Source: a virus
Taxonomy: Duplodnaviria; Caudoviricetes
Reading direction: 5' to 3' (one strand)
Length of the DNA stretch: 56,418 bases
IMG/VR virus record: IMGVR_UViG_3300049595_000896
Span: 1 to 56,418 of that record
Position numbers and translations under genes: made by a program. Under the pieces are notes generated by a model. The model was not told the DNA's origin, searched no databases, and saw only the letters and a list, made by a program, of their open reading frames with translations. Positions 1,378 to 56,066 of the stretch are shown one piece after another (the stretch's first letter is position 1; each line of letters begins with the position of its first letter).

Positions 1378-1463
1378 CTTGGGGTCGGGGCGAATTGCGT
1401 CCAGATTTAAGTTCTTATAGAACTTAACATTAACCAGTGAATGCCCTATGGCAGGAGGTTCCT

Positions 1464-1784
1464 ATGTCTAACTTATCGTTCGTTATGCGTCATGGCATCG
1501 ACCCTGTAAGGGTTACGCCCAACGTGTCTATTACACCCTTGGCCGAAGGCGGCTTCGCCGTGGCCTATATCGCGCCTGCTAACAGCATCGCTCCGTCTCC
1601 CCCTGAGTACGCCTATACTCTGGACGAAGCTGTCTCCGTAGCGCGGACTATGGACTATAGCCTGCGTGTATTCAACCAGCAGTGTGAGGAGGCTGACCGT
1701 AAGGGCCGTCGTCAGCCGCGCTCTTATGGGCGCAGGTTCAGGACTGCCAAGGCCGCTTTCGCCTACTCTGGCCCTACGTTTTAG
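1464..1784 (+). CDS. Hypothetical protein
   Basis: AGGAGG RBS before ATG 1464. Confidence 0.8.
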   Translation: MSNLSFVMRHGIDPVRVTPNVSITPLAEGGFAVAYIAPANSIAPSPPEYAYTLDEAVSVARTMDYSLRVFNQQCEEADRKGRRQPRSYGRRFRTAKAAFAYSGPTF

Positions 1785-1793
1785 GAGGACGCT

Positions 1794-2012
1794 GTGAATA
1801 CGGACGCGATAGCTGAGTATGAAAAACTACATGCAAAAGCCGATGCTTTCTGGATTGTATACGCTTATGAAGACGATCCTGTTCTCGAGGAGCTATATAT
1901 CACGCACATTGATGCGGTGTATGCGAAACTGGAAGAGTTACTTTCAAAAATGACCGACGAAGAATTGCAGTATATATCGCGCAAGGAAAACTGGGCCGCC
2001 TACGCCGACTAA
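1794..2012 (+). CDS. Hypothetical acidic protein
   Basis: AGGAGG RBS and GTG start. Confidence 0.75.
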   Translation: MNTDAIAEYEKLHAKADAFWIVYAYEDDPVLEELYITHIDAVYAKLEELLSKMTDEELQYISRKENWAAYAD

Positions 2013-2019
2013 TATTAAA

Positions 2020-2080
2020 GAACGAAACCTAGGGGCTTCGGCCCCGATGGTCGTGGCGTTATGCGCCACCTGACGAGTTC
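2020..2080 (+). ncRNA. Type II hammerhead ribozyme; predicted cleavage after GUC at C2052
   Basis: GAAC|GAAA|CC..GGGGC-UUCG-GCCCC..GG|UC|GUGGCG-UUAUG-CGCCAC|CUGACGA|GUUC. All core nucleotides and three stems are present. Confidence 0.93.
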
Positions 2081-2109
2081 AGTTAACATCCATACAGTAA
2101 GGAGAACCT

Positions 2110-2301
2110 ATGCGGCTCTATATGCTGCGCTACGCCTCTGGTCGCGCCTATCGCACGGCTAATGGGGAGTATGTTTACTTCAATTCCAAGGACGAGGCCA
2201 AGCGTCAGAGGGACGCGCTTAACCGCGCTGTCACTGGCGAGAAGGCTGTCGTCAGCCTTGGACCGGACCATAAACGCTGGCGCTCAGGCCGCACGGCCTG
2301 A
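2110..2301 (+). CDS. Small basic hypothetical protein
   Basis: AAGGAG RBS; first ORF downstream of the ribozyme. Confidence 0.75.
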   Translation: MRLYMLRYASGRAYRTANGEYVYFNSKDEAKRQRDALNRAVTGEKAVVSLGPDHKRWRSGRTA

Positions 2302-2350
2302 CTGCCGCCCTGTTCGATACACTCTGGACATAATGAAGGAGATAACAACT

Positions 2351-3463
2351 ATGCATGCTTCACTTCTCTCGCAGACCCTTCAGGCTCTGCATAAAATTAA
2401 TCGCTCACTGTGCATCGAAGGGCCACCCGGTGGTGGCAAAACCAGCGTGGTGCGTCAGACTGCGCGCCTTATGGCGGGGTGCACTAACGACAGCGTTCAC
2501 CCTGACGAGCACATGGTCGGTTCGATCACGGTCTACACGGGCCAGACGCAGGCGTTTGGGTACAGTGAGGTCCACCTGCCGACCAAGACTGTCGATGACT
2601 TCGGCATACCGGACATGCTTAACAAGGGTGAGACTATCGCCTACCGCCTGTTCGAGTGGTTCCCTGCTATACACCGCACGGATATCCCTGAGCGTGGCAT
2701 ACTGTGCTTCGACGACCGTAACCAAGCGAGCGCTGACATCCAGAAGGTTCTGGCCAATATCATTCAGGCTAGGACGCTGCATGGCGTCATGCTTAAGCCC
2801 GGCTGGCAGGTGGTCTCTACGGGTAACAGGCAGTCGGACAGGGCGGGTGCTGGCCGTGTGCTCAGCCACCTGCGTAACCGCGAGTCTGTGGTCAACTTCG
2901 AGACGAGCCTCAAGGACTGGATCGCCTATGCTGAGGGTGCTGGGGTGCACCCTTACGTTGTGAGTTTCCTGCGGTTCAGGCCGGATCTGCTGCATGCCTT
3001 TGACCCTGACAAGCCCGCCTCGCCTACCCCTAGGTCATGGGCTGAGGGCGTTGCGCCTCTTATCGGCGTAGTGCCTGACGATGCTGAGCACGAGTTGTTC
3101 TGCGGCGCTGTAGGCGATGGCGCTGCGGCTGAGTTCGTGGGGTTCCTGCGTATCGCTAGGAGCCTGACTAGCCCGGACGTTATCCTCAAGGACCCTGACA
3201 ACTCGCCTATCCCCACTGACACGGCTACGCTCTACGCCCTTACGGGTGCGCTTGCTCACCGTGTGGTCAAGGCTCCGACCCTCCCTGACGCGCAGGTTAT
3301 GGCTTCGGCTGTGCTGCGTTACGTGACGCGCTTTGCGTCGATGGGTCGTGCTGAGTTCGGCGTCATTGCTGTATCCAGCATGCTTAAGCGCAGTGATCTC
3401 AAGGCTGCGTCCTTCCCCGGCCTGCCTGAGTTCTTCATGAAGAACCAGTCGGTCATGTTCTGA
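2351..3463 (+). CDS. MoxR/AAA_5-like AAA+ ATPase
   Basis: Walker A GPPGGGKT, Walker B LCFDD, sensor TGN, R-finger region LRNR, PTPRSW; AAGGAG RBS at 2351. Confidence 0.9.
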   Translation: MHASLLSQTLQALHKINRSLCIEGPPGGGKTSVVRQTARLMAGCTNDSVHPDEHMVGSITVYTGQTQAFGYSEVHLPTKTVDDFGIPDMLNKGETIAYRLFEWFPAIHRTDIPERGILCFDDRNQASADIQKVLANIIQARTLHGVMLKPGWQVVSTGNRQSDRAGAGRVLSHLRNRESVVNFETSLKDWIAYAEGAGVHPYVVSFLRFRPDLLHAFDPDKPASPTPRSWAEGVAPLIGVVPDDAEHELFCGAVGDGAAAEFVGFLRIARSLTSPDVILKDPDNSPIPTDTATLYALTGALAHRVVKAPTLPDAQVMASAVLRYVTRFASMGRAEFGVIAVSSMLKRSDLKAASFPGLPEFFMKNQSVMF

Positions 3464-3492
3464 TACACACATTTAACAGAGTGGAGATACCT

Positions 3493-4380
3493 ATGAAACT
3501 CAATGACAGGGCGTTGCTTGTGACGCTTAAGATCAGCCAGTGGGCTGGACGTAAGCACGATAAGCAGGTGACCAAGCAGGTCGCCAGTCAGCATGCAGCT
3601 GACACGAGCGTTGGCCGGTTCAACAAGTCGCTGCTGCCCGCTACAGGTTACCTCGAAGACGTGCACGCTATGACGTCCGCCATCCGCCAGATGGTCTACC
3701 AGAACACTATGGCGTGGGGCTCAGTCGACGGCACGAGACTGCTTCCTGTGGGCAATTATCTGGCGTTTACTGCTACGTTCAGGCGCATGCTTACGGAGCG
3801 GGAGGCTGCTGTCGAGCGCTTCCTGTCTGCTTATCCCCGCCTCAAGGAGGAGGCTAAACTCTTCCTGCCTAACGGGCTCTACAAGGAGGACGATTACCCT
3901 GACGTGGACACACTGCGGGGTAAGTTTGCGTGCTCTGTGGAGATGGGTCCGGTTCCTACCGATGACTTCAGGGTGCAGCTTGGCGATGCTGAGCTTGCAC
4001 AGATTAAGGCTGACGTTGTCGCACGTACTGAGGCCAGCATGAGGGACGCCATGCGTGAGGTCTGGCAACGGCTCTATGACCGGGTCAAGCACATGGCTGA
4101 CAAGCTGCAGGCCATCGACGACACAGCGGACGTTGAGGGCAGGGGCAAGGCGCGGCTGCACGAGAGCACTATAGAAAACATACGTGAGATATGTGAGCTA
4201 CTGCCCCGGCTTAATATTACCAACGACCCTGACCTTGAGGCCATGCGCCAGCGTGTGGCTGACTCGTTGGGCACAGTTGAGACTGACGCGCTCAAGGCCG
4301 ACCCACTATTCCGCGAGCGCACTAAGACTGAAGCGCAGTCTATCATGGACGCGATGGCTACTTTCATGGGAGGCGTGTAA
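3493..4380 (+). CDS. Conserved helical phage protein (DUF3150-like)
   Basis: N-terminal LLVTLKISQWAGRK..D and NKSLL; position between the AAA and vWA genes. Confidence 0.6.
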   Translation: MKLNDRALLVTLKISQWAGRKHDKQVTKQVASQHAADTSVGRFNKSLLPATGYLEDVHAMTSAIRQMVYQNTMAWGSVDGTRLLPVGNYLAFTATFRRMLTEREAAVERFLSAYPRLKEEAKLFLPNGLYKEDDYPDVDTLRGKFACSVEMGPVPTDDFRVQLGDAELAQIKADVVARTEASMRDAMREVWQRLYDRVKHMADKLQAIDDTADVEGRGKARLHESTIENIREICELLPRLNITNDPDLEAMRQRVADSLGTVETDALKADPLFRERTKTEAQSIMDAMATFMGGV

Positions 4381-5528
4381 TGACTAGCAGGAAGCCCAAG
4401 CGTATCACTCAGTCCGAGTTTGACACACTCATAAGCCGCACACGTAGTGTCCTGACACTGGAGCACCCCTTCTTTGGGGTGCTTTCCTTTGGCATGGAGC
4501 ACGTGCTGGACGACACTATTAACCCGCCTACTGCGTGCGTTGATGGCATGACTGTCAGCTATCACCCGGAGTTCGTCGCGTCCCTCACTAAGGACGAGAT
4601 GTTGTTCCTAGTCGCGCATGAGTGCATGCACCCCATGCTTGACCATATCGGACGCATGACAGGCCGGGAGCCTAAGCGTTGGAATATCGCCTGTGATATA
4701 GTTGTTAACCACTATCTCAAGCAGGACAATATCGGTCGTATGCCTGAGTGTGGCATCACTGACCCCGCGCTATTCGCCAAGGGTCAGGGTGTGGTTGAGG
4801 TTATATACAACTTGCTTGAGTCAAACGAGGGTCAGGGGCAGGGTCAGTCCACCCCTAGCCACGACCAGATGGACGCCATGCAGGAGGCTGACGCCTCTGA
4901 AGGGCAGGTTCAGAGCAAATGGAAGCCCCTTGTTATGCAGGCTCAGGCTGCTGCAAAGCAGGCTGGCAAGCTATCGGGTGCGCTAGAGCGTCTGGTCAAG
5001 CAGGCTGTCGTGTCGCCTCCTAACTGGCGTCAGATCATGGCTGAGTGGATGTCACGTAGTGCGATGGGTGACCAGCGCACATGGTCGCGTCCGTCCAGAC
5101 GCATGGCTGCTGCGGGTATGTATAGACCAGCCACCTACAGTGAGGCTATCGGCGAGCTAGTTATAGCAGTCGACTGTTCAGGGTCAGTCAGTCCTGAGTT
5201 GCTCGACAAGTTCATGGCGCATGTGCGTGCGCTATGCGAGGACATCCAGCCTAAGCGTATACATATTGCGTACTTCCACCACACAGTGTTCCGCGTCGAC
5301 AGTTACGAGAACGCGGACGATATGGTCATCAACATAACCGAGTCGGGAGGGACGGCGTTCTCGCCTATCTTCCGGCGGGTTGACGCGGACGGCATAGACC
5401 CCGTGTGCTGCGTCGTCCTGACTGACCTTGAGTGCAGCGACTATGGTCCTCAGCCGGGCTACCCCGTGCTGTGGGCGTCTACAACTGACGCCAAGGCCCC
5501 TTGGGGCCGCACTATCCGCATCGACTAA
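4380..5528 (+). CDS. Metallopeptidase-vWA protein (DUF2201-like)
   Basis: PTACVDG, HECMH zincin motif, WNIACD, MIDAS DCSGS..GGT..TD. Confidence 0.9.
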   Translation: MTSRKPKRITQSEFDTLISRTRSVLTLEHPFFGVLSFGMEHVLDDTINPPTACVDGMTVSYHPEFVASLTKDEMLFLVAHECMHPMLDHIGRMTGREPKRWNIACDIVVNHYLKQDNIGRMPECGITDPALFAKGQGVVEVIYNLLESNEGQGQGQSTPSHDQMDAMQEADASEGQVQSKWKPLVMQAQAAAKQAGKLSGALERLVKQAVVSPPNWRQIMAEWMSRSAMGDQRTWSRPSRRMAAAGMYRPATYSEAIGELVIAVDCSGSVSPELLDKFMAHVRALCEDIQPKRIHIAYFHHTVFRVDSYENADDMVINITESGGTAFSPIFRRVDADGIDPVCCVVLTDLECSDYGPQPGYPVLWASTTDAKAPWGRTIRID

Positions 5529-5551
5529 TCACACACAAAGGAGACTGACAC

Positions 5552-6286
5552 ATGGCTATTGTTCGTATGACTGAGCTGGTTATCGAGAGCATGTCGCGTA
5601 ACCTTGTCCAGCTGCGTAAACCTGAACTCGCCGTGCTTGAGGCTGCGCGTCCCATGAAGGCGTTCGCAGATCTGTATAACTGGATGGTGCCTGACACCCT
5701 CAAGGCGCAGCTGGATCAGTTACCCCCGCGGTATCGTCCGGCGATGATTGATAAGATACATATCAGGTTCGCCGGCACGAGTGTTGTTACTTTCATCACT
5801 GCTTCTGAGATTAACGGGTATAATCAGAGGGAGCCGGCTAAGACGGTCTATGCGCTTCTATCTCCCGGCCACCAGAGTATTATCAGGTCGGGTCAACCCG
5901 TTGTTCTTGGTAATATATCCCTCAGCCAAGACGCGATGGAGTTCAAAGCCCTTGGTGAGATAACGGAGATCCACGAGAGCATACGTGACGCATACTGTGC
6001 AGCGAGGGCGTATGCTGATAAAATAGTAGAGTACAATGCAGAAACGCGGCGGCATATTGCTACGCTGCAGAACTACCTGCAGAACCAGCCTTCACTCAAC
6101 AAGGCTGTGGCTAACATGCCTGCTATCAGGGCGTTCATCAACCCTAACCACCTCGACAAGATGGCTGAACGGGTTGAGCGTGCGCCTCGTAAGACGTCCG
6201 AACCCAAGGCTAAACAGCTGCCAGCGACGCCTGCTGACAGCGCCATGACTGAGCTTGTCATGGTCGCCGCTCAGACACGGGTCTAA
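5552..6286 (+). CDS. Hypothetical protein (possibly Nmad5-like)
   Basis: AAGGAG RBS. The C-terminal SL.KA..NMP.I..F pattern resembles Nmad5, but only weakly. Confidence 0.55.
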   Translation: MAIVRMTELVIESMSRNLVQLRKPELAVLEAARPMKAFADLYNWMVPDTLKAQLDQLPPRYRPAMIDKIHIRFAGTSVVTFITASEINGYNQREPAKTVYALLSPGHQSIIRSGQPVVLGNISLSQDAMEFKALGEITEIHESIRDAYCAARAYADKIVEYNAETRRHIATLQNYLQNQPSLNKAVANMPAIRAFINPNHLDKMAERVERAPRKTSEPKAKQLPATPADSAMTELVMVAAQTRV

Positions 6287-6289
6287 CCC

Positions 6290-6481
6290 GTGACCAAGCG
6301 CTGCGTAGGGTGCACGTTCTTCTCCGCTGAGAAAAAGATTGACAACCTGTGGAGAGGGCAGTGTACCTTAAGGCGGGCTCAAGTAACAGAAGCGACCGTT
6401 GCGTGCCTTCATTGGTTGCGTAACGGCGCTTCTTCTCGCGCCCGATCAGAAGTGTGGGATAAACTTTACGGAGACGATTAG
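6290..6481 (+). CDS. Small Cys-rich hypothetical protein
   Basis: CxxC...C...C; fills the gap in the operon. Confidence 0.55.
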   Translation: MTKRCVGCTFFSAEKKIDNLWRGQCTLRRAQVTEATVACLHWLRNGASSRARSEVWDKLYGDD

Positions 6482-6483
6482 GT

Positions 6484-6990
6484 ATGGTTGCGTCTGGCCC
6501 GATCATTCAACAAGCTATGACACGGGTCAGACGATCCTTCCCTTACTTTACAGACGATATGCTCAGGCTAAAGGACCGGTCCAAGCGGACGGTCATACCA
6601 CGTCAATACATGTGGTATCTATTGAGATTATACGGGCGAAGTTATCCTTGGATCGCTCGCAACACCGGAGGGTGGGACCACACGACTATTATGTGGGGCG
6701 TCAAGGCGCATGTGCGTGCGATGCAGAACCCTGAGAGCAGCCTCTATAAAACAGGTGTCAGATTGCAGAACACTACAGGTTTACTGGAAGAGATTGAGCG
6801 GCTGGAGCGTGAGATTAAACAACTCAGCGACACAGCGGAGGACATGCAGCGTCAGCGTCTGGCGTTGGTATATCAACTTAATGATCTGAGGGAGAAAGCT
6901 TATGGATTATCGAGTGAAGAACCGTCTCGCAGACAAACTCATGAGGGCGTTGATCGCGCTCATGCACCATCGCACCAACCCAAAGGCTAG
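6484..6990 (+). CDS. DnaA domain IV (Bac_DnaA_C)-like HTH protein with C-terminal coiled coil
   Basis: PRQYMWYLLR..GRSYPWIAR..GGWDHTTIMWG matches the DnaA PRQ.AMYL...SLP.IG..FGGRDHTTV signature. Confidence 0.85.
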   Translation: MVASGPIIQQAMTRVRRSFPYFTDDMLRLKDRSKRTVIPRQYMWYLLRLYGRSYPWIARNTGGWDHTTIMWGVKAHVRAMQNPESSLYKTGVRLQNTTGLLEEIERLEREIKQLSDTAEDMQRQRLALVYQLNDLREKAYGLSSEEPSRRQTHEGVDRAHAPSHQPKG

Positions 6991-7249
6991 AGTTACGCTT
7001 GCGTACAGGATGTGGGCTGTAACGGACAATGACTGCCGGCTGTCTCTGCTGGACCCGCCTGCTTATAGCTGGGCCGCTGGTATCGTGGGCTTTATACAGG
7101 CTATCCTTTACGTAGAAAAGAAACCGGCCCGCACCGGAGGGCTATGCCAGTGCTGCAAGCGAGCCAGTCAGCATACGCAGTATGCGCTGGCCATGTACGC
7201 CCGGGCTAGGTTCGGTCAGCGTGCACCGATCTACTCGGTCATGGCGTGA
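6902..7249 (+). CDS. Hypothetical protein
   Basis: ORF in operon context; overlaps the upstream gene. Confidence 0.55.
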   Translation: MDYRVKNRLADKLMRALIALMHHRTNPKARVTLAYRMWAVTDNDCRLSLLDPPAYSWAAGIVGFIQAILYVEKKPARTGGLCQCCKRASQHTQYALAMYARARFGQRAPIYSVMA

Positions 7250-7264
7250 GGAAGGCGATAGATA

Positions 7265-9133
7265 ATGGACATAGTTACCATAGACTTCGAGACCTACTAC
7301 GACAAGACATATAGTTTATCGAAGATGACGACGGAGAGTTATATCCGTGACCCTCGGTTCGAGATCATCGGGGTTGGGGTTAAGATAAACAACTACGCCA
7401 CAGACTGGTATAGCGGGGAGAACTTCGGGCGCGTACTCACTGGGCTTGACTACTCCGACAAGGCCATACTCGCACACAACGCTGCGTTCGACGGGGCTAT
7501 TCTGTCGTGGAAGTTTGGAATAAAACCAAAGCTCTGGCTGGATACTCTGTCCATGGCCCGGGCTAAGGTCGGACTTATCCAGAGCATATCGCTGGCGAAC
7601 CTCGTCAATGCGTTCGGGTTAGGGGCCAAGGGTGTGGAGGTTGTGAACGCACTGGGTAAACGCCGCGCTGAGTTTACACCCAACGAACTGTCCAAGTATG
7701 GCGATTACTGCATCAACGACGTCGAGCTTACGTACAAGCTGTTCAAGGTACTGGCCAAGGACTACCCCGCCAGTGAACTCGCCGCCATCGACGCAGCCCT
7801 AAGGCTATACACTGAGCCGGTCATTGAACTGGACAGGGAGAGGCTGGCCACGCACCTCAGCACGGTTAGGGACCACAAGGCTAACCTCCTGTCGATGCTC
7901 GCAGAACAGGGCGTTACGCAGGAAGATCTCATGTCTAACCAGAAGCTGGCGCACCTGCTGCTGGATCTGGGCGTCGAGCCGCCGACCAAGGTCAGCCCCA
8001 CTACAAACGAGAACACGTTCGCCTTCAGCAAGACAGACCTAGAGTTTACTGACTTGCTCAACCATGAGAACCTGACTGTGCAGAACGTCGTGGCTGCAAG
8101 GCTTGGCGTTAAGAGCACGCTCGACGAGACCAGAACCGAAGCGCTGCTCGGGGTGCAGGAGCGTGGCCCCCTGCCTGTTATGCTGCACTACTATGGCGCA
8201 CACACAGGGCGGTTCTCTGGTGGCGACAAGCTGAACATGCAGAACCTGCCACGTAAGGGTGCTATCAGGCGGGCTATGCGTGCACCGGAGGGACATGTCT
8301 TTGGTGTGGTGGACAGCTCACAGATAGAAGCGCGGGTGCTGGCATGGCTGGCCAGTGAGGACGCCATCGTCGATGCGTTCCGTAACAAGCGGGATGTGTA
8401 CAGCGAGTTCGCGTCTAAACTTTACGACCGACCAATCACCAAGGCGGACGAGACGGAGAGGTTCCTAGGCAAGGTCTGCATCCTTGGTCTGGGGTACGGG
8501 CTCGGATGGGTCAAGCTGCAACTTATCCTTGCGTCTGGGGCGATGGGCAAGAAGATCAACCTGTCCAAAGAACAGTGCCAGCGCATTGTAAATAAGTACC
8601 GTGAGACTAACCACCGTATCGCAGGGCTATGGTGGCAGGCGGGGAAAGCACTGGAGATGTTGGATCGTAACCAGTCCTTCGTGCTCGCCAATAAATTTGT
8701 TTGCGAAGATAAATCTATACGCTTGCCGAACGGCATGTCTTTACAATACCCTCTGCTGCGCCACACCAAGAACGGGTTTGGCTACTGCGCTATGCCCAAC
8801 GCATTCAAGGCAATCATGAATGCAAGGCTGGCCGGCGAAGACATGGACGACCAACCGTGGAAGTACATCTACGGAGGGAAGGTCATTGAGAACCTTGTGC
8901 AGGCGCTGGCTACCATAATCATCAAGGAACAATGGATACGCATCAACGCCAGCAAAAAGTACAAGGTTGTCATGCAGGTGCACGACGAACTCGTTGCGAT
9001 TATACCAGAGAAGGAAGCAAAAGAAGGACTTGCATATATGATGGATATTATGTCAACGCCCCCTGCATGGGCGGCGGATCTGCCTGTAGCGTGTGAAGGT
9101 GCAACTGCTAAGTATTATGGAGACGCTAAGTGA
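7265..9133 (+). CDS. polA: Family A DNA polymerase with 3'-5' exonuclease
   Basis: ExoI DFET, ExoII HNAAFD, ExoIII YCINDV; HTGRFSG, motif A DSSQIEAR, motif B R..GK..ILGLGYG, motif C VHDE. Confidence 0.97.
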   Translation: MDIVTIDFETYYDKTYSLSKMTTESYIRDPRFEIIGVGVKINNYATDWYSGENFGRVLTGLDYSDKAILAHNAAFDGAILSWKFGIKPKLWLDTLSMARAKVGLIQSISLANLVNAFGLGAKGVEVVNALGKRRAEFTPNELSKYGDYCINDVELTYKLFKVLAKDYPASELAAIDAALRLYTEPVIELDRERLATHLSTVRDHKANLLSMLAEQGVTQEDLMSNQKLAHLLLDLGVEPPTKVSPTTNENTFAFSKTDLEFTDLLNHENLTVQNVVAARLGVKSTLDETRTEALLGVQERGPLPVMLHYYGAHTGRFSGGDKLNMQNLPRKGAIRRAMRAPEGHVFGVVDSSQIEARVLAWLASEDAIVDAFRNKRDVYSEFASKLYDRPITKADETERFLGKVCILGLGYGLGWVKLQLILASGAMGKKINLSKEQCQRIVNKYRETNHRIAGLWWQAGKALEMLDRNQSFVLANKFVCEDKSIRLPNGMSLQYPLLRHTKNGFGYCAMPNAFKAIMNARLAGEDMDDQPWKYIYGGKVIENLVQALATIIIKEQWIRINASKKYKVVMQVHDELVAIIPEKEAKEGLAYMMDIMSTPPAWAADLPVACEGATAKYYGDAK

Positions 9134-9384
9134 CAGACGAAGAAGTAGATAATGTTATCAACGTAGACTTTGATCGGCGCTCTCAGGTTAAAGAAGTTCT
9201 CACTAGCGCATACGCATACGTGTCCGAAGCAAAAAGCATAGGGGACGTGGTGCTCGTGGTTACTACAGGGGATTCAGTCGCGTTGTTTTCTACAAAGATA
9301 AAGTACCCTGAAGTCTTTGCATACCTGATGGAATTTCTCAAAGATAAGATACTGGAAGAGGGGATCTTCGATGACTACAACTAG
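9130..9384 (+). CDS. Hypothetical protein
   Basis: Translationally coupled to polA (GTGA overlap). Confidence 0.7.
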   Translation: MTDEEVDNVINVDFDRRSQVKEVLTSAYAYVSEAKSIGDVVLVVTTGDSVALFSTKIKYPEVFAYLMEFLKDKILEEGIFDDYN

Positions 9385-9589
9385 AGATAAACTCGAACTC
9401 GAAGCTGACAAAGCATGGGAAGAGTGGGAGATAGCGGAACGCTGGTGGCTTGAGTCAGGAGGTATATATACAGCATCCGTTGCAGAAGAAAACGCTTGGA
9501 ACAATTATCTCCGGGCGGTCAACAAGTTGAACACTTTCATAGGGGAGCAGAACGCCAAGCACCAAGTGCGTATAACAGAGAACGGATGA
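9371..9589 (+). CDS. Hypothetical protein
   Basis: Operon context. Confidence 0.65.
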   Translation: MTTTRDKLELEADKAWEEWEIAERWWLESGGIYTASVAEENAWNNYLRAVNKLNTFIGEQNAKHQVRITENG

Positions 9590-9592
9590 GCT

Positions 9593-10258
9593 ATGACCAC
9601 ACTCGAAACACTGGCGCATTCGTATTCATCCCTCAAGCTTTTTGATAACTGCCCTAAAAGATACTACCACGAACGAATATCCCGGGAGGTAAGACAAGAG
9701 ACCGGGGAGGCGCAACTGCACGGCGAGCGCGTGCATAAAGCCTTGGAAAAGAAACTACTTAAAGAGGAGGAACTGCCACCAGATCTGGATAAATTCACGA
9801 CTGTATGCGATAAACTCATTAACTCTAGCGGAGAACTTCTACCAGAGAACAAACTTGCATTGAATAAAAATTTCTTGCCCACATCTTGGATGGGCGACGA
9901 CACGTGGCTTCGATGTCAGATCGATGTATTAGTTGTTGACAATTCGAAAGCTACCGTACTAGACTGGAAGACTGGCAAAAGACGACCCGACCCTTTTCAA
10001 CTTCTAGTAGCAGCCGTAATGGTGTTCGCTCACTGGGAGAATATAGAAAACATAGACGCCGGGTTTTTCTGGTTGCCAGATAAGAAGATCGATCCGTATA
10101 ACTACAAGCGGAGCGAGTACGAACAACTAGTTAGAACTATTAAACTTAAAACCAACAGAGTGGAAGAAGCATTCGTGCATGATGTATGGCCCGCAAAACC
10201 AAGTGGGCTCTGTAAATCCTGCCCGTGCAGATCTTTCTGCCTGTATGCAAGGAAATAA
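9593..10258 (+). CDS. PD-(D/E)XK Cas4/RecB-like exonuclease
   Basis: SYSSL...CP, HG..VH, ID..., DWKTG, QL, C-terminal CxxCxxxxxC. Confidence 0.9.
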   Translation: MTTLETLAHSYSSLKLFDNCPKRYYHERISREVRQETGEAQLHGERVHKALEKKLLKEEELPPDLDKFTTVCDKLINSSGELLPENKLALNKNFLPTSWMGDDTWLRCQIDVLVVDNSKATVLDWKTGKRRPDPFQLLVAAVMVFAHWENIENIDAGFFWLPDKKIDPYNYKRSEYEQLVRTIKLKTNRVEEAFVHDVWPAKPSGLCKSCPCRSFCLYARK

Positions 10259-10260
10259 AA

Positions 10261-10608
10261 ATGGATATCGAGACACTATACTCAGAACTTAAAATGGCTA
10301 CGAACGAACTTAAATTCGCTCAGCTTCAACGGGAAAGCTTAGATAAACAAGTACACGCAGCCGAAAAGAAAGTGCGGGATCTTGTCAACCAGCTGGCCAA
10401 AGCATCAGGAGTAACTGCGGGGAACAACTCCAAGGTAGCCCGCGCTTCCTACAGTGCAGCTGACGACGAGACGCTCAAGCAAATGTGGGAAGCTAACAAA
10501 ACCGCTCGGGAGATAGCTCTCGCACTGGGCAAAAAGTCGTCTAGTGTAAACTCCCGTATCGCCAGACTTGGACTGAGCCGCAGACCCCGGTCTAAGGAAC
10601 AGGCATGA
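10261..10608 (+). CDS. Coiled-coil protein with C-terminal GcrA-like HTH
   Basis: DETLKQMWEANKTAREIALALG...V.SRIARLGLSRR resembles the GcrA N-terminal HTH. Confidence 0.7.
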   Translation: MDIETLYSELKMATNELKFAQLQRESLDKQVHAAEKKVRDLVNQLAKASGVTAGNNSKVARASYSAADDETLKQMWEANKTAREIALALGKKSSSVNSRIARLGLSRRPRSKEQA

Positions 10609-10937
10609 GCCGATCAACTCCCGAAAACCGCGTAAAGAAGCTACTGGATACAATGCTCAAGACTGAGCGCGTCTGGTTCTTCGCGCCGCAAGCGGGTCCG
10701 TACGGGCATGCTGGCATACCTGACAGGGTTGCGTGTGTTTTCGGGAGGTTTGTCGGGATAGAATGTAAAGCGGACAAGAGCAAGAAGCCGACCGCCTTAC
10801 AGGAACTCTGCGCTAAACGCATACACGACGCAGGCGGCGCATGGTTCCTAGTCTATGATGAAGAGACCATAGAAAAAGTGCGGGAGTTTATCCATGATTG
10901 TCGTCGAGCCAGCCAAAGCGTTAGCTCTGAAACTTAA
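10605..10937 (+). CDS. VRR-NUC nuclease
   Basis: TPE..V, GIPD, FVGIECKA, PTALQ, AGG. Confidence 0.92.
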   Translation: MSRSTPENRVKKLLDTMLKTERVWFFAPQAGPYGHAGIPDRVACVFGRFVGIECKADKSKKPTALQELCAKRIHDAGGAWFLVYDEETIEKVREFIHDCRRASQSVSSET

Positions 10938-12447
10938 CAACCCGGGACGAGTATTATCTACCATACCAACAGCAAGACTGCTGCATAAAGACGGGATAGA
11001 CCTGACGATTGTCCCGCATAAACTTGATGAAGTCAAAGTACTAAGAAACCTAGGCATCAGAGCCCCATCCCCAATACTTTACTACTACAACTGGCCCGGG
11101 CGCTTCAAACCCTACGAACACCAGCGCAAGACTGCTGAGTTCCTGACCCTGCATAAGCGTGCGCTTGTGCTCAACGAGATTGGCACAGGCAAATCTATCA
11201 GCGCACTGTGGGCTGCTGACTACCTGATGACACGCAACGAGATCCGTAAGGTTCTTATTGTGTCTCCCTTGTCCACACTTGAGCGGGTGTGGGGTGATGC
11301 TATCTTTACCGAACTTGTTCACCGTAAAGCGGTGACGTTGCACGGCACTTCCGAGCGCCGCATGAAGCTGCTCAAAGCTGACGCAGACTTCTACATCGTC
11401 AACCATGATGGGTTCCAGATCATAGCCGATGCTGCGCATGGTATGTTTGATCTTGTCATTGTCGACGAGGCCGCAGTGCTGCGTAACCCGGGGACCAAGA
11501 AGTTCAAGGCGTTCAGGCGGTGGCTGCAGGAGAACCCACAGACGTGGGCGTGGCTCATGACGGGGACGCCTACACCCAACGAACCTACTGATGCATGGGC
11601 GCTGGCCCGCCTGATCGACAGCCCTATGTGTAACATGCCTTACACAGCATTCAGAGAGAAGGTTATGCAGAGGGTGGGTCCATACCGCATGGTCCCTCGC
11701 CCCGAAGCTACCGAGATTGCAAGCCAGATGTTGCAGCCAAGCGTGCGGTTCACCCGTGACGAGTGCTTCGACCTGCCCGAAACAGTTATACAAACTCGTA
11801 AAGTTAGCTTGACGAGCGAGCAGGAGAAGCACTATAAGAGCATGATGAAGACGCTGATGGCAGACTTGGCAGGAGGGCAGATCACTGCTGCGAACGACGC
11901 AGTCAAGGCGTTGAAACTAATACAGATATGTTGTGGCGTAGCCTACGGAGAAGACGGCAAGCACATCCATCTGGACTGTGCGCCTAGGGTCAACGCAGTC
12001 AAGGAGTTGATCGAAGAGGTCGGGGATAAAGTCATTATCTTTGTGCCCTTAACAGGCACGTTACGTATGTTAGAGGAGGAACTCGGCAAGCACTATACTG
12101 TGGGCGTGGTCAATGGGGAGGTGCCAAGTTCCAAGCGGGACGTGATCTTCCATAACTTCCAGAACCACAAGGACCCACACATACTTATCGCCCACCCCGC
12201 CACCATGGCGCACGGGCTGACACTGACTGCGGCGCGGACCATCATCTGGTATGGGCCGATCAACAGCAACGAGACTTATGTCCAAGCATGCGGGAGGATC
12301 GAACGTATAGGCAAGAAGTATACATCCAACATCATACACATAGAGGCCACAGAACTAGAACACCGGATGTACGAAAGACTTAAGAACAAGCAGAGCGTGC
12401 AGGGTGTCCTACTGGATCTCATACAGCAACAAAGGGGTGCGATATGA
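10894..12447 (+). CDS. SNF2-family helicase
   Basis: GTGKS, VDEA, MTGTP, HGLTL, QACGRIER.G. Confidence 0.93.
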   Translation: MIVVEPAKALALKLNNPGRVLSTIPTARLLHKDGIDLTIVPHKLDEVKVLRNLGIRAPSPILYYYNWPGRFKPYEHQRKTAEFLTLHKRALVLNEIGTGKSISALWAADYLMTRNEIRKVLIVSPLSTLERVWGDAIFTELVHRKAVTLHGTSERRMKLLKADADFYIVNHDGFQIIADAAHGMFDLVIVDEAAVLRNPGTKKFKAFRRWLQENPQTWAWLMTGTPTPNEPTDAWALARLIDSPMCNMPYTAFREKVMQRVGPYRMVPRPEATEIASQMLQPSVRFTRDECFDLPETVIQTRKVSLTSEQEKHYKSMMKTLMADLAGGQITAANDAVKALKLIQICCGVAYGEDGKHIHLDCAPRVNAVKELIEEVGDKVIIFVPLTGTLRMLEEELGKHYTVGVVNGEVPSSKRDVIFHNFQNHKDPHILIAHPATMAHGLTLTAARTIIWYGPINSNETYVQACGRIERIGKKYTSNIIHIEATELEHRMYERLKNKQSVQGVLLDLIQQQRGAI

Positions 12448-12839
12448 CATTGACAGTTGATGGCGTCATTGAGGGGTACCTCAAACTGCGCGCCAAGAAG
12501 CAGGCCATAGAGGCCGAAACAAAAGAAAGACTATCTGTTATAGAAGCTAACATGGATAAACTTGAAGCATGGCTGAAACTTAAGGCGGAAGAGACAGGAG
12601 TAACCAGCTTCAAGACAGACAACGGCACAGCTTTCCTGACCACAGTCGACTTCGCCAACGTGGCAGACTGGGACGCCGTGCTTGCACATATCAAAACTAA
12701 CGGAGCCTACGACATGCTGGAGAAGCGTGTCAGCAAGATGGCAGTGCGTGCGTACATCGAGATGCACCGCGCCGTTCCTCCCGGAATTAACTACGGTACG
12801 AAACTAGAAGTAAGCGTCCGCAAACCTGCGGCATCATGA
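12444..12839 (+). CDS. Conserved phage replication-region protein
   Basis: Coiled-coil N-terminus; VADWD, LEKRVS, PPG pattern. Confidence 0.75.
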   Translation: MTLTVDGVIEGYLKLRAKKQAIEAETKERLSVIEANMDKLEAWLKLKAEETGVTSFKTDNGTAFLTTVDFANVADWDAVLAHIKTNGAYDMLEKRVSKMAVRAYIEMHRAVPPGINYGTKLEVSVRKPAAS

Positions 12840-12853
12840 CAGAAAGGCATAAC

Positions 12854-13888
12854 ATGACCAATCTTATTCCGGCTAACGTCAACATCCCCGCCCATCTGGC
12901 CAACAGGATCGGCGCACCCTCATCCCTGAGCAAGGCGCTGAGCGGTGGCATCGGTGGCAGCACAGACATCATCCCCAAGATCAGTATCAAAGGCTCGCGG
13001 TTCCGCATTGTGGAAGGCAAGACCGAGACTGTACTGAACACGTTGACTCTTGATGTCATCATCGTGGGTGCTAACCCCCGCCTGTCCAAGACCTACTACG
13101 CTGCACAGTGGTCGCCTGAGAGCGAGCCTGCCTCGCCTGACTGCTGGTCCATGGACGGCATCCGTCCTCATCCTGACGCAGCTAACCCGCAGCATGACAT
13201 GTGTCAGGGCTGCCCCCAGAATGCATGGGGCTCGAAGGTGACTGCACAGGGCAAGGAGATCAAAGCCTGCTCTGACAAGAAGCGTCTCGCTGTGGTCGCA
13301 GCGGATGACCCCGGTGGTCCGGTCTACCTGCTGGAAGTTACACCGGCTGCGTTGCAGGGACTGGGCAAGTACCAGAAGGAACTGTCATCCCGTGGCATTC
13401 CTGTAGAGATCGTGCGTACAGTGGTTGGCTTTGATACGGACGCCAGTTTCCCCAAGCTTAACTTCAAGTTTGGCGGGTTCATCAACGAAGAAGCGCAGAA
13501 CCTGACTGCTCCTCTTCTGGATAGCGAGGAGGTAATGAATGTCACAGGACAAGCCGAAGGGTCAACGCATCAGGACGCAGGACTTCCCAGCCCGGCCCCG
13601 GTCCTTCCTGCTCCCCCGCCTCCGCCGCCCCCGCCTCCGCCGCCCGCACCCGCTCAAGCTAAGAGAGGATTTGCTTCTCAGGCCAGTGTGCTGGCTCCTC
13701 CTGCCAATCTTTCTGTGGTTCGCCCTAGTCCAGCTAGCACTGGCGATAGCGGCAATAGTGATGGTGGGGTTGGCGCTGCTGTAAAACGCGGGCGTCCGGC
13801 CAAGGTCGCGACCCCTGAGCCTCAGGCCAGTTCGTCTCTGGTTGATGATATCACATCTCTGCTGGCGGGGATGGCGAGCGATGACTAA
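12854..13888 (+). CDS. Putative ssDNA-binding/annealing protein with Cys cluster and poly-Pro linker
   Basis: ISIKGSRF; PDCWS.DG..P, C..CP.N.WGS, KAC; disordered Pro-rich tail and acidic end. Confidence 0.6.
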   Translation: MTNLIPANVNIPAHLANRIGAPSSLSKALSGGIGGSTDIIPKISIKGSRFRIVEGKTETVLNTLTLDVIIVGANPRLSKTYYAAQWSPESEPASPDCWSMDGIRPHPDAANPQHDMCQGCPQNAWGSKVTAQGKEIKACSDKKRLAVVAADDPGGPVYLLEVTPAALQGLGKYQKELSSRGIPVEIVRTVVGFDTDASFPKLNFKFGGFINEEAQNLTAPLLDSEEVMNVTGQAEGSTHQDAGLPSPAPVLPAPPPPPPPPPPPAPAQAKRGFASQASVLAPPANLSVVRPSPASTGDSGNSDGGVGAAVKRGRPAKVATPEPQASSSLVDDITSLLAGMASDD

Positions 13889-14165
13889 GTTCGAGCACGC
13901 TCCTGTCGACTTCAATAAAGTAGAAAGCTTGCGCAGGCATATGCTTCTCAACACTTCGGATATGGCGAAGCTGCTGGGAGTAAGCCGGGTGACTTACTAC
14001 AACTGGGTCAGAGGGAAACCTGTCAGGAAAAACAATGTGATACAGGTGAAGAACACTCTTCGTGGTCTTCTCAATGTGATGACTACTCACAGCTGGCCAC
14101 AGCCACACGTGATAGCCATGGAGCCTAATCAAAGGCTCGAAAAGTTACTTGAGCTTCTTAAATAA
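13881..14165 (+). CDS. XRE-family HTH protein
   Basis: DMAKLLGVSRVTYYNWVRG. Confidence 0.85.
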   Translation: MTKFEHAPVDFNKVESLRRHMLLNTSDMAKLLGVSRVTYYNWVRGKPVRKNNVIQVKNTLRGLLNVMTTHSWPQPHVIAMEPNQRLEKLLELLK

Positions 14166-14176
14166 CTCAGCTTACT

Positions 14177-14201
14177 GTGCGAGGGGTAGCACCCCTCGCA
14201 C
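14177..14201. promoter_or_regulatory. Perfect 11-bp hairpin directly upstream of the primase RBS
   Basis: GTGCGAGGGGT-AGC-ACCCCTCGCAC with no U-tract. Confidence 0.55.
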
Positions 14202-14215
14202 GAAAGGGCTCGCAA

Positions 14216-17080
14216 ATGGACACGCTGGAGTTCTTCCGGCGAGTTCTTCCGTCTTCTGGGTATTACTGTGCCTTCAATGTGGACAACAGGCAGCACGGTT
14301 TTTTCTCAACAGTCGAAGAACTGGCTAGCATCTCCGTTCGCATGGACGAGATGGGGAGAAATACCTACTACGCGATATCATCTTTTATAGAAAAGAAGGG
14401 GAGGAAGCAAGCAAATGTCAAAGCAACCAAGGTCATCGCCCTCGATGTAGATGTCGGCAAGTACGACGCAGCCGGGGAGCTACGCAATAGTTATGCCACG
14501 TTGCAGGATGCAGGCGTAGCTGTCGCCCAGTTCATAACCAAGACAGGACTGCCAGATCCGCTGATGGTGTTCAGCGGCAATGGTCTGCACATGTACTGGG
14601 TAATGACACGCGACCTGACGCCCGAGGAGTGGCAGCCTCTGGCGTCTGCGCTCAAGATACTCGCCGCAAGGCATATCATAATCGACCCGGCAGTGACAGA
14701 GGACAGCGCCCGTGTGCTGCGTGCTGTCGGCATAACCAACAGGAACAGCGGCAAGAAGGCTCAGTTATTACGCGATGCGTCAGACGTCGACCCACTCGAC
14801 TTCGCCCGGGCTCTCGGCGCTTCAGGTGTAGCCCCCCCACCGCAGGCACAACCGTCCCGCAAGACTACACTACTGGATAACTTGGCTGTAAAGACTGACC
14901 ACCCGCTGGGTGTTGCGTCCGTCATCATGTCCAAATGCCAGCAGGTTAAGGACGCAGTCTCTAAACCAGAGAGCGTGCCCGAGCCCCTGTGGTATGCTCT
15001 TATAGGCGTGGCGGCGCACTGCGAGAACCCCGAACAGACAGCCATAGAGTGGAGCAAGGGGCACCCCGAGTTCTCTCATGTGGAGACTCTGCGTAAGCTG
15101 GAGCAGTGGAAGAAGAACGCCACCGGCCCGACACTCTGCACCAAGTTCGAGAGCGAGAACCCTGACGGATGTAAAAGTTGCAGGCTGAAGGGGCGTATCG
15201 CATCGCCTGTCCATACAGGGCAGACCTATAAAGAAGTTGACCAGAGCGCAGCACCCGACCCCATAGCGCAGGCAGTCCCGCTTCCCAAGCCGTTCAAGCG
15301 CACGGCGCAGGGCATCAAGATGGTTATCGACGGCGTCGACACAGACGTATGTAGCTTCGACATCTACCCTACAAGCTATGGCAAGGACGAGATGCTGGGC
15401 TATGAAGTTGCGCGGTTTATGTGGGACAGATCCCATGTAGGATGGCAACCGCTTGTACTCAGGCAGGCGCTACTGACTGATGGGCACAGGGAGTTTGCTA
15501 CTGCACTGGCGGATCAGGGTATTATATTCCAGCACAAGAAGCTGACAGAAAGTTTCCAGTATATGCTGCGGTCCTATCTAGATAGCTTAAAGAAAACTAC
15601 CCGTATGACGAACCTGTATTCGTCAATGGGCTGGAAAGAAGACTTCTCCCAGTTTGTCATGGGCGACTCTGTAATACGTCTTGACGAGAGTGGGTCCGCA
15701 CAGGAAGAGCAGATCACTTTATCTGCACCCATGCAACGCCAAGGCTCTGAGTTGTGGGAGACCAAGGGCAGCCTTAAGGCGCAGGTGGACGGGCTCGCAG
15801 TACTCGAACGCGCAGATATGCCATGGCACATGTTCGCCATAGGCGTCATGCTAAGCGCCCCGCTCTACGAGTTCACCGGTCTCAAGGGGCTGACTGTCTC
15901 GCTCAACGGACCCACTGGCGGCGGCAAAACCCTGACGCAGTTGTGGGGCCAGAGCCTTTGGGGCAACCCGGACAAGCTGCACTTCACTTCTAAGTTCACA
16001 ATCAACGCGCTGTTTAACCGTATGTCGCTCTACCGCAACATGCCGATGACTGTAGACGAAGCGACTATGATGAACCCCAAAGACATAGGGGACTTCCTGT
16101 ACTCAGTCACGCAGGGCGCAGACAAGATCCGCCTTAACCGCAACACTGAAGAGCGCGACAGCAAGCCTTACTTCATACCTGTTGTACTCAGTACCAACAC
16201 AAGCATCGCATCGATGCTGATCTCTGCGGGCTCAGAGACAGAAGCCCAGATGGCCAGACTATTGGAGATAAACATACCATCGCATCCGCTGTTCTCCCGG
16301 GACAGCAACGCAGGCAAGATGATCTACAACCATATACATAATAACTACGGACACATAGGCCGGGCGTTTGTGTCCAAGCTGCTGGAGCTAGGACCGCAGT
16401 CCCTCAAGGACATGATTAACCGGCACTATGATCTGTTCAAAAAGAAATACAAAGCCAGCTTTGGCGGGCAGGAGAGATACTGGGAGGCGGCGGTTGTGCT
16501 TGCCGACATGGCCTTCCACCTTGCCCACAGCTGGGGCCTTGTGCCGTTCAAGTACGAACGCTGCATAGAGTGGATGCTCATACAACTGGGAGCGATACGC
16601 AAGGCTGTGGCCGACATCAAGCGCGACACGTTTGACCTGATCTCCGAGTACGTCAACGACCATGCGTCTGTGCTTGTGACCGTTATGCATACAGCAGGGA
16701 TGAAGCCGCAGGCAGACCACCTGCGCATGCCCCGGGAGGACATACGTATAAGGCTGGACCTCTACAGGAAGTCGCTTAACGACAGGTTCGACAAGGGTAC
16801 CATGCTCATGGACCGCGTCCACTTCCGTCGTTGGCTCGCAGAGAAGCGGTACGATTACCGTACTGTACTGCAGGACCTCAACGCTGAGAATGTCATTGCC
16901 AGTCCGAAGAGTGGCAAGGCTTATCTTGGCAAAGACACAGTCGCCAAGACTGCACAGACCTACGTTATAGGAGTGAACCTCAACCATCCGCGCCTTGTCG
17001 GTATCATCGACGACACCGAAGCATCCATCATGGACCTGACGCTAGGTCAGCTTCACTCTGTGCCTTCGTCAAGTCCGTAG
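14216..17080 (+). CDS. Primase-helicase (AEP/RepB-like N-terminus, Cys-cluster domain, DUF927/SF3-like ATPase)
   Basis: LDVD, SGNGLHMYW, D.ARVLR; EPLW and C..C cluster; MGW; GPTGGGKT; VDE. Confidence 0.88.
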   Translation: MDTLEFFRRVLPSSGYYCAFNVDNRQHGFFSTVEELASISVRMDEMGRNTYYAISSFIEKKGRKQANVKATKVIALDVDVGKYDAAGELRNSYATLQDAGVAVAQFITKTGLPDPLMVFSGNGLHMYWVMTRDLTPEEWQPLASALKILAARHIIIDPAVTEDSARVLRAVGITNRNSGKKAQLLRDASDVDPLDFARALGASGVAPPPQAQPSRKTTLLDNLAVKTDHPLGVASVIMSKCQQVKDAVSKPESVPEPLWYALIGVAAHCENPEQTAIEWSKGHPEFSHVETLRKLEQWKKNATGPTLCTKFESENPDGCKSCRLKGRIASPVHTGQTYKEVDQSAAPDPIAQAVPLPKPFKRTAQGIKMVIDGVDTDVCSFDIYPTSYGKDEMLGYEVARFMWDRSHVGWQPLVLRQALLTDGHREFATALADQGIIFQHKKLTESFQYMLRSYLDSLKKTTRMTNLYSSMGWKEDFSQFVMGDSVIRLDESGSAQEEQITLSAPMQRQGSELWETKGSLKAQVDGLAVLERADMPWHMFAIGVMLSAPLYEFTGLKGLTVSLNGPTGGGKTLTQLWGQSLWGNPDKLHFTSKFTINALFNRMSLYRNMPMTVDEATMMNPKDIGDFLYSVTQGADKIRLNRNTEERDSKPYFIPVVLSTNTSIASMLISAGSETEAQMARLLEINIPSHPLFSRDSNAGKMIYNHIHNNYGHIGRAFVSKLLELGPQSLKDMINRHYDLFKKKYKASFGGQERYWEAAVVLADMAFHLAHSWGLVPFKYERCIEWMLIQLGAIRKAVADIKRDTFDLISEYVNDHASVLVTVMHTAGMKPQADHLRMPREDIRIRLDLYRKSLNDRFDKGTMLMDRVHFRRWLAEKRYDYRTVLQDLNAENVIASPKSGKAYLGKDTVAKTAQTYVIGVNLNHPRLVGIIDDTEASIMDLTLGQLHSVPSSSP

Positions 17081-55900: not shown

Positions 55901-55931
55901 GAGGCCCCGGGAAACCGGGGTCTCTTTTTTT
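55901..55931 (+). terminator. Intrinsic terminator
   Basis: GAGGCCCCGG-GAAA-CCGGGGTCTC followed by T7. Confidence 0.9.
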
Positions 55932-56066
55932 GTCTGTTTTTCTTTTGTGTAAGTAGTCTCATGTGGCCGGGGGGTTAGAGATCGACGCCCGCCAAACGGT
56001 CGACGGACGCCACGGGCACGCCCGCTTTCGGTCACGTTATAGCTCGCTTTTCGCGTTTTTACCCGA

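Follow-up and report, generated by a model that had tools for sequence, protein, structure and literature searches.

A genuine type II hammerhead ribozyme lies on the plus strand at positions 2020-2080 of the IMG/VR virus record IMGVR_UViG_3300049595_000896 (Duplodnaviria; Caudoviricetes). At 56,418 bp the virus record is complete and has direct terminal repeats of 127 bp; its whole length is referred to here as the window. The ribozyme occupies a gap of 97 nt between the stop codon of one small open reading frame (ORF; 72 amino acids, TAA 2010-2012) and the start codon of another (63 amino acids, ATG 2110), upstream of a cassette that encodes a MoxR-like ATPase and a protein with a VWA-like domain. 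Its identity is confirmed: the match is not a product of chance, and a covariance model places it in a family of hammerheads from related viral loci. As a whole, the site is best explained by a ribozyme that very probably cleaves itself between C2052 and G2053 and thereby splits a polycistronic transcript.

Both the topology of the element and the kind of context in which it stands are known, and hammerheads have been recognised in phage genomes since 2011. In PMC3088659 (Perreault et al. 2011), prophage hammerheads of Agrobacterium tumefaciens (ardA), Clostridium scindens and Azorhizobium caulinodans are located between co-directional genes, singly or on both sides, as in the loci described here. 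Prophage hammerheads cleave polycistronic RNAs of about 2 kb in vitro and one set cleaves in E. coli; phage hammerheads were already proposed there, in 2011, to divide long transcripts into mRNAs the length of a gene or operon. In Desulfovibrio vulgaris, three type II hammerheads predicted close to phage-like genes cleave in vivo (PMC8782182), and the purpose of phage hammerheads is still called open in the later reviews PMC6765202 and PMC6155905. In contrast to the prophage examples, a single gene family, the MoxR-like ATPase, is the partner here, with a ribozyme on its 5' side in 31 of 80 relatives. This link between a hammerhead and the MoxR-like ATPase/VWA cassette is absent from the literature searched, in which no paper was found that combines hammerhead, ribozyme and MoxR.

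A complete type II hammerhead in an intergenic gap

The screening rules for hammerheads given in PMC3088659 are a full core, no mispair beside the core, and no repeated mispairs in short stems. At 2020-2080 the full core (C3 U4 G5 A6 N7 G8 A9 G12 A13 A14 A15 U16 H17) is present, and the pairs adjacent to it are all matched, namely G2053-C2069 in stem I, G2077-C2023 in stem II and A2027-U2051 in stem III. The short stems are paired throughout (7 of 7 pairs in stem I and 4 of 4 in stem II), and stem III has one internal loop between its three core-side pairs (A2027-U2051, C2028-G2050, C2029-G2049) and the five pairs of its outer helix (GGGGC 2032-2036 with GCCCC 2041-2045, capped by UUCG). Stems I and III each end in a loop and stem II is open, and the elements follow the type II order of GAAA, stem III, cleavage site, stem I and CUGANGA. 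The hammerhead fold has an energy of -27.0 kcal/mol, only 0.3 from the minimum free energy of -27.3 kcal/mol for the region.

Every element listed in an initial annotation of this DNA, which had been made from the sequence alone, was found where that annotation had placed it. The same annotation had suggested that stem II could be extended by pairing UUAA at 2015-2018 with UUAA at 2083-2086. Both strings are present in the sequence, but the extension makes the predicted fold less stable (-25.6 versus -27.0 kcal/mol) and is not seen in the flanks of relatives.

A covarying family mostly missed by the curated Rfam model

A descriptor of the type II order, with a stem I of at least 5 bp, stems II and III of at least 3 bp and the full core, was applied to both strands; it matched the window once and found nothing in 300 dinucleotide-preserving shuffles. 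The Rfam model Hammerhead_II (RF02276), which had been put forward earlier as a check on the element, did not recover it. No Rfam family matched the whole window at the gathering threshold, and when a 201-nt stretch was searched with all families, RF02276 aligned over its full model (1-66) at 15.1 bits against a cut-off of 37, with an E-value of 1.2. Two further matches reported in E-value mode in this stretch, mir-5729 and lincRNA-p21_2, were at chance level and were rejected. Comparison with relatives shows that the sub-threshold score of the hammerhead has a structural cause and does not reflect decay.

A covariance model built from four relatives of equal length, with the window excluded (model R1), scores the window element at 51.6 bits (E-value 8.6e-15 over 609,097 bases searched); the independence of this score is only partial, because the stem I and loop of the window recur in one of the seeds, which comes from the contig of L013. 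A broader model (R2) was derived from an alignment that includes the window, so that its 48.8 bits for the window element are not independent, and it revealed no additional hammerheads in the 80 ATPase loci described below.

Covariation was measured in two alignments. The first (A3) contains 64 hits, 42 of them distinct; 98.1% of its cells are paired, 15 of 17 pairs have changed on both sides, and its covariation score is 0.672, compared with 0.140 after shuffling and 0.068-0.115 when the partners are slid. The second (A5) was drawn from 80 other viral loci found by a pattern for the triloop architecture, which fixes the core, the triloop-closing U and G, and the helix lengths while leaving the remaining stem letters free. 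It contains 139 hits (132 distinct), with 99.3% of cells paired, again 15 of 17 pairs changed on both sides, and a covariation score of 0.856 versus 0.178 in shuffles and 0.051-0.108 for slid partners. Fitting to the model biases both alignments in favour of the structure; the slid controls keep the relatedness of the sequences.

Individual relatives make the same point at the level of single stems. In the nearest one (L009/L013, a 57,780-bp IMG/VR contig with an ATPase of 84% identity), a hammerhead occupies the equivalent position, upstream of a homologue of the 63-amino-acid ORF. Relative to the window, its stem II reads GGAC/GUCC for GAAC/GUUC, its first stem I pair is A-U for G-C, its N7 is U, and its stem III is an unrelated 6-bp hairpin. 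In another relative (L010), the stem I and core of the window are combined with a stem II of GGUC/GACC, a third version of stem III and an A at H17. The earlier claim of an intact type II hammerhead is thus borne out by the core, the stems, the covariance model and the covariation in relatives.

Most hammerheads of the form seen in the window fall below the Rfam cut-off, which passes 5 of 26 family-model hits in 20 loci and 3 of 50 in another 9, drawn from the loci found with the triloop pattern. The window element is therefore a clear case of a hammerhead missed by the curated model, and Rfam-based counts of phage ribozymes are probably low, because so few family-model hits in these related viral loci pass.

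Two structural forms and a candidate loop-loop contact

Hammerheads of two structural forms can be distinguished. In the Rfam-type form, stem II has 3 bp, stem I has 8-9 bp, loop I is UGGCU-like and the 3' tail is AGCC, which gives the published pseudoknot. In the form of the window, stem II has 4 bp, stem I has 7 bp with U.G as its last pair, loop I has 3 nt and the 3' tail is A/C-rich. RF02276 occurs in the same intergenic phage context (PMC3088659), and the relatives L066, L089 and L054, which have their ribozymes at the same site in other clades, pass its cut-off. The published description gives a stem II of 1-3 bp and a pseudoknot of at least 4 pairs, unlike the 4-bp stem II, 3-nt loop I and absence of an above-chance pseudoknot in the window. 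It also states that the majority of type II examples, not all of them, have the pseudoknot and that other contacts may exist (PMC3088659).

As a measure of complementarity, the longest stretch of consecutive Watson-Crick pairs that loop I can form with the first 20 nt of the 3' tail was taken. Its mean length is 4.58 in the Rfam-type form (n = 12), the positive control, versus 2.97 in shuffles, whereas the triloop form of the window (n = 21) shows no excess, with 2.57 both observed and shuffled. A contact between UAUG of loop I and CAUA at 2091-2094, proposed in the initial annotation, did not hold up: this 4-bp run lies 11 nt downstream, whereas the published pseudoknot has at least 4 Watson-Crick pairs just downstream of stem II, and a match of this length is at chance level (p 0.41).

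What is conserved in the triloop form is a set of single bases around stem II and in loop I. They were counted in a pattern-derived set (n = 121) and in a set of ATPase neighbours (n = 19), the latter selected by no flank. Directly 5' of stem II, all 121 and all 19 sequences, respectively, have an A, which stands there in only 3 of 11 of the Rfam-type (pseudoknot) form. An A follows stem II directly on its 3' side in 92 of 121 and 17 of 19, and the triloop has a central A in 96 of 121 and 16 of 19. The window carries all of these signature bases (A2019, A2081 and A2061, together with U2059). The invariant A at position -1 is not a by-product of abutting stop codons, because the base preceding it is C in 36 of the 121 sequences.

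These bases recall natural type I and type III hammerheads. In PMC2632901 (Dufour et al. 2009), the U at the 5' end of loop 1 and the A at the 3' end of loop 2 form a reverse Hoogsteen pair, accompanied by an R:A opposition, and the motif is given as UNmYN / RNnA. The hammerheads of sTRSV, CChMVd and Schistosoma resemble the window in the loop 1 5' U, the loop 2 3' A and a purine:A on a 4-bp stem II; their loop 2 is closed and their loop 1 is a heptaloop, whereas in the window loop 2 runs into the flanking mRNA and loop 1 has 5 nt (U-N-A-N-G, or a triloop on U.G) (PMC2632901). The equivalents of the motif, U2059, A2019 and A2081, are present and conserved in the subclass, but with an open loop 2 and a shorter loop 1. 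Judging from this conservation and by analogy, docking of stems I and II most likely uses the classical contact, as a U2059-A2019 pair with loop 2 opened into the transcript. The conserved flank signature predicts how the two stems would dock in a type II form that has no pseudoknot.

A wider proposal is put forward tentatively. There may be a large, mostly unannotated type II subclass in which the Watson-Crick pseudoknot is replaced by a U-A loop-loop contact with loop 2 opened, and whose signature would be an A at -1, a 4-bp stem II, a 3' purine, and a U-N-A-N-G loop on a 6-bp stem I. Different clades of uncultured aquatic phages may have recruited the two subclasses independently to a position 5' of the MoxR-like ATPase/VWA cassette. 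If this is true, the cassette would be a natural test bed for the purpose of phage ribozymes. The flank signature is absent from the literature examined; the pseudoknot-free type II form itself may already sit in the supplementary alignments of PMC3088659.

Placement at the MoxR-like ATPase

To place the element in its gene context, 28 ATPase homologues were aligned, and 80 viral loci with an ATPase at 47-84% identity were examined out of 457 ATPase-bearing viral stretches. Among the 80 loci, 37 have a type II hammerhead, or more than one, no further than about 3 kb from the ATPase. The distance from its end to the ATPase start is 19-56 nt at 28 loci and 194-321 nt at 3 more, as in the window, where the small ORF stands in between. 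From the end of the window ribozyme to the next start codon there are 29 nt, a spacing within the range of its relatives. A second hammerhead directly follows the ATPase at 6 loci (L014-L019), which are therefore bracketed on both sides. The initial annotation had raised the retention of the ribozyme upstream of the AAA/VWA genes in related phages. This holds in part: a hammerhead stands no more than 321 nt upstream at 31 of the 80 loci, whereas 43 have none within about 3 kb.

On a FastTree tree of 81 ATPases, the label of a hammerhead at the 5' side requires 4 changes, compared with a mean of 23.6 in shuffles, a difference to which near-identical rows on the tree contribute by clustering the label. 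Ribozymes on the 5' side are spread over four ATPase clades, three of which have the structural form of the window and the fourth the Rfam form. That different clades have two peripheral designs of the same ribozyme at a single genomic position suggests selection for a cut there. The MoxR-like ATPase cassette is thus a defined gene partner of the ribozyme, in 31 of 80 relatives and four clades, and close relatives without a ribozyme provide natural with/without pairs for asking whether cleavage alters mRNA stability or translation.

Two features of these loci were observed in addition. At L014 (ribozymes at 2917-2970 and 4094-4149) and likewise at L015-L019, two hammerheads bracket the ATPase gene; in the L014 type, the upstream stop codon overlaps the first stem II base of ribozyme 1, and ribozyme 2 ends 1 nt before an ATG. 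A family of small basic ORFs of about 60-75 amino acids precedes the ATPase in many relatives, often overlapping its start. Its members, including those at 2110-2301 of the window, about 2824-3002 of L022 and about 2813-3002 of L090, have the motifs L-x-M-L-R near the N-terminus and G-x-D-H-[KR] near the C-terminus and match no Pfam or PHROG family.

Table 1. Coordinates of the hammerhead elements and neighbouring genes in the window
Feature	Position	Strand	Remarks
Upstream small ORF	1794..2012	+	72 amino acids, no family match; TAA 2010-2012 ends 7 nt before stem II
A at position -1, directly 5' of stem II	2019	+	invariant in triloop subclass; proposed partner of U2059
Stem II, 5' strand GAAC (last base C11.1)	2020..2023	+	pairs covary in relatives
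Core G12 A13 A14 and A15.1	2024..2027	+	GAAA in sequence
Stem III (last base U16.1)	2027..2051	+	3 bp at core, internal loop UA/GAU, then GGGGC-UUCG-GCCCC
Predicted cleavage site	2052..2053	+	after C17 (2052), before G1.1 (2053); based on position in hammerhead consensus
Stem I hairpin	2053..2069	+	2053-2059/2063-2069, 7 bp (6 Watson-Crick and U2059.G2063), triloop UAU; all 7 pairs covary
Core C3 U4 G5 A6 C7 G8 A9 (CUGACGA)	2070..2076	+	
Stem II, 3' strand GUUC (first base G10.1)	2077..2080	+	
A at position +1, directly 3' of stem II	2081	+	with A2019, candidate purine:A opposition at open end of stem II
AGGAG ribosome-binding site	2100..2104	+	starts 20 nt after ribozyme; mostly unpaired in predicted product
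Small ORF P0001	2110..2301	+	63 amino acids; kept beside ATPase in relatives; no family match
MoxR-like AAA_5 ATPase	2351..3463	+	likely start ATG 2351 after GAAGGAG
Protein with DUF2201_N metallopeptidase-like and DUF2201 VWA-like domains	4380..5528	+	

Proposed consequences of cleavage

All long ORFs from 2162 to 17080 are on the plus strand, and no plus-strand terminator-like site was found between 566 and 4579. Because of the co-directional ORFs and the absence of such a terminator, the ribozyme site probably lies within a longer transcript. As a separate observation, a 40-nt repeat (544-583 and 55902-55941, 90% identical) near both genome ends, just inside the 127-bp terminal repeats, has a GC-rich hairpin followed by a T-run on the plus strand, like an intrinsic terminator.

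Once transcription has passed position 2080 or so, stems I, II and III would fold around the CUGACGA/GAAA core, and the RNA would cleave itself between C2052 and G2053. The polycistronic transcript would be split in two by this cut, and the products should part at once, because only the 4-bp stem II joins them. The upstream product would have the GC-rich stem III hairpin at its end and terminate in a 2',3'-cyclic phosphate. The downstream product would begin with a 5'-OH directly on the 7-bp stem I hairpin and would carry a 57-nt leader, an exposed AGGAG, the 63-amino-acid ORF, the MoxR-like ATPase and the VWA-like gene. In structure predictions of this product, the leader after the stem I hairpin is unpaired, and its AGGAG mostly so. 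A 5'-OH on a terminal hairpin is a poor entry point for 5'-end-dependent RNase E; even so, the effect of cleavage on the stability of the cassette mRNA could go either way. The cleavage itself, the tertiary pair, transcription across the site and any effect on the stability or translation of the cassette are inferred, as are the early timing of the mRNA and the protection of a hairpin-capped 5'-OH product from RNase E/J that the initial annotation had proposed.

Synthetic ribozyme insulators in 5' leaders, such as RiboJ, offer a parallel, as their cleavage removes the upstream context and leaves a 5'-OH hairpin leader before the ribosome-binding site. Such insulators are engineered and derived from type III hammerheads, whereas the window element is natural and of type II, and the likeness is one of principle only.

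Several points weigh against a self-cleaving ribozyme that processes the transcript of this cassette. Stem III has only 3 bp before its internal loop, and the score with the Rfam model, 15.1 against 37 bits, is below the gathering threshold. For the proposed tertiary contact, loop 1 has 5 nt here and 7 nt in the published motif, whose penultimate pyrimidine is unconserved in the subclass (59 of 121). No plus-strand promoter-like site was found upstream, by a scan that says little because the promoter type of the phage is not known. A search for RNA runs containing the stretch found none, and the four runs compared with it consist of DNA contigs. Finally, the cassette does not need a hammerhead, since 43 of the 80 loci lack one within about 3 kb. 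Three of these 43 have less than 150 nt of upstream sequence. A search of 20 of them with Rfam at gathering thresholds, made for other ribozyme classes, gave no hits, and in the hammerhead-less loci inspected the small ORF overlaps the ATPase start.

The stem III module and hammerhead arrays

Parts of the window ribozyme recur in more distant viruses. Four Streptomyces phages share with the window, at 91-94% identity, a stretch of 35 nt that spans stem II, core and stem III; in them the stem III module of the window is part of type II hammerheads whose stems I and II differ. The same stem III is also present in further viral contigs, namely L004 and L007, both of which pass Rfam, and L005. In L005 (166-227, minus strand), the module lies inside a type I hammerhead, with stem I open, and stem III is therefore shared across circular permutations.

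Arrays of hammerheads were observed in several viral loci. Streptomyces phage Gibson (L001, MK305891.1) has four type II matches within 6 kb (429-481, 2394-2457, 3003-3064 and 4409-4473), each in an intergenic gap among co-directional hypothetical genes. The record MK305891.1 carries no annotation under the hammerhead matched by blastn, and similar arrays occur in the IMG/VR contigs L002 and L003. Arrays of the triloop type were found at single IMG/VR loci of 8-15 kb, with 11 model hits in L102, 9 in L113, 6 in L095 and 5 each in L125 and L115.

Alternative explanations

A real ribozyme might act in the opposite direction, lowering or uncoupling expression through a destabilised upstream mRNA, broken translational coupling or decay of the 5'-OH product, and thus set the ratio of neighbouring genes. 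The stop codon of the upstream ORF lies directly against stem II or overlaps it in many relatives, so that upstream translation and ribozyme folding can interfere with each other, and 43 of 80 relatives manage without a ribozyme. The predicted 3' product, however, has a perfect 7-bp hairpin followed by an unpaired leader and ribosome-binding site, and given a 5'-end-dependent RNase E this layout favours stability and translation. We consider the lowering role unlikely, while recognising that the present data cannot separate the direction of the effect, lowering or protecting.

Alternatively, a real ribozyme might chiefly mark or move with gene cassettes, being located at recombination joints and spread horizontally, with any effect on expression secondary. 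Two contigs of run X14 match part of the region: one aligns to 1764-2018 and runs on into unlike sequence, and the other aligns to 2016-2305, with unlike sequence before it. These breaks fall at the 5' edge of the ribozyme (2016-2018), so a related population seems to have a different gene arrangement joined there. The site of the ribozyme also varies by clade: in the window and L013 it precedes the small ORF, in others it stands immediately before the ATPase or on both sides of it, and at least 4 changes of its label are required on the ATPase tree. The 35-nt stretch shared with the four Streptomyces phages and the arrays of up to 11 hammerheads per locus in other viral contigs are likewise consistent with movement. 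Against this, breaks in metagenome contigs can be assembly artefacts, and the break was seen in one run only. Furthermore, the distance to the start codon is fixed within clades (19-56 nt) and the covariation keeps the fold intact, which speaks for selection acting on RNA function at this place. We therefore hold a role chiefly in cassette movement to be quite improbable, and prefer processing of the cassette transcript.

It is very improbable that the element is a chance or decayed hammerhead-like motif, or a structured hairpin or terminator that does not cleave itself: besides the sub-threshold Rfam score, such a reading can draw on a fold z-score of only -2.29 for the 91-nt region, on a minus strand that folds equally well and has a weak terminator-like match at 2040-2023, and on a lack of variants at 2015-2095 in two related populations that is not significant (21 variant sites in the 801 nt of 1700-2500 and none in 1997-2096, with about 2.1 expected in 81 nt), but it is opposed by the empty shuffles, the family-model score, compensatory changes in all three stems of the nearest relative's syntenic copy and across the family, the absence of a T-run after the stem III hairpin on the plus strand, and the plus-strand orientation of all neighbouring genes.

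Other features of the window

Cultured phages are only distantly related to this region. A megablast search of 1400-4400 against them gave no match, and tblastn with the ATPase found only relatives of at most 31% identity, including the Vibrio phages pVa5 and VBP47, which we take to be N4-like.

A 2949-amino-acid ORF on the minus strand (17053-25902) has a size reminiscent of the virion RNA polymerases of N4-type phages. That assignment was considered and is not supported, as the protein has no sequence match in PDB and a PHROG of unknown function (a profile of 3431 positions) was the sole match for its last 500 residues, and we make no claim about the mode of transcription. The same ORF contains runs of a 15-nt repeat at 22804-22862 and 23521-23636.

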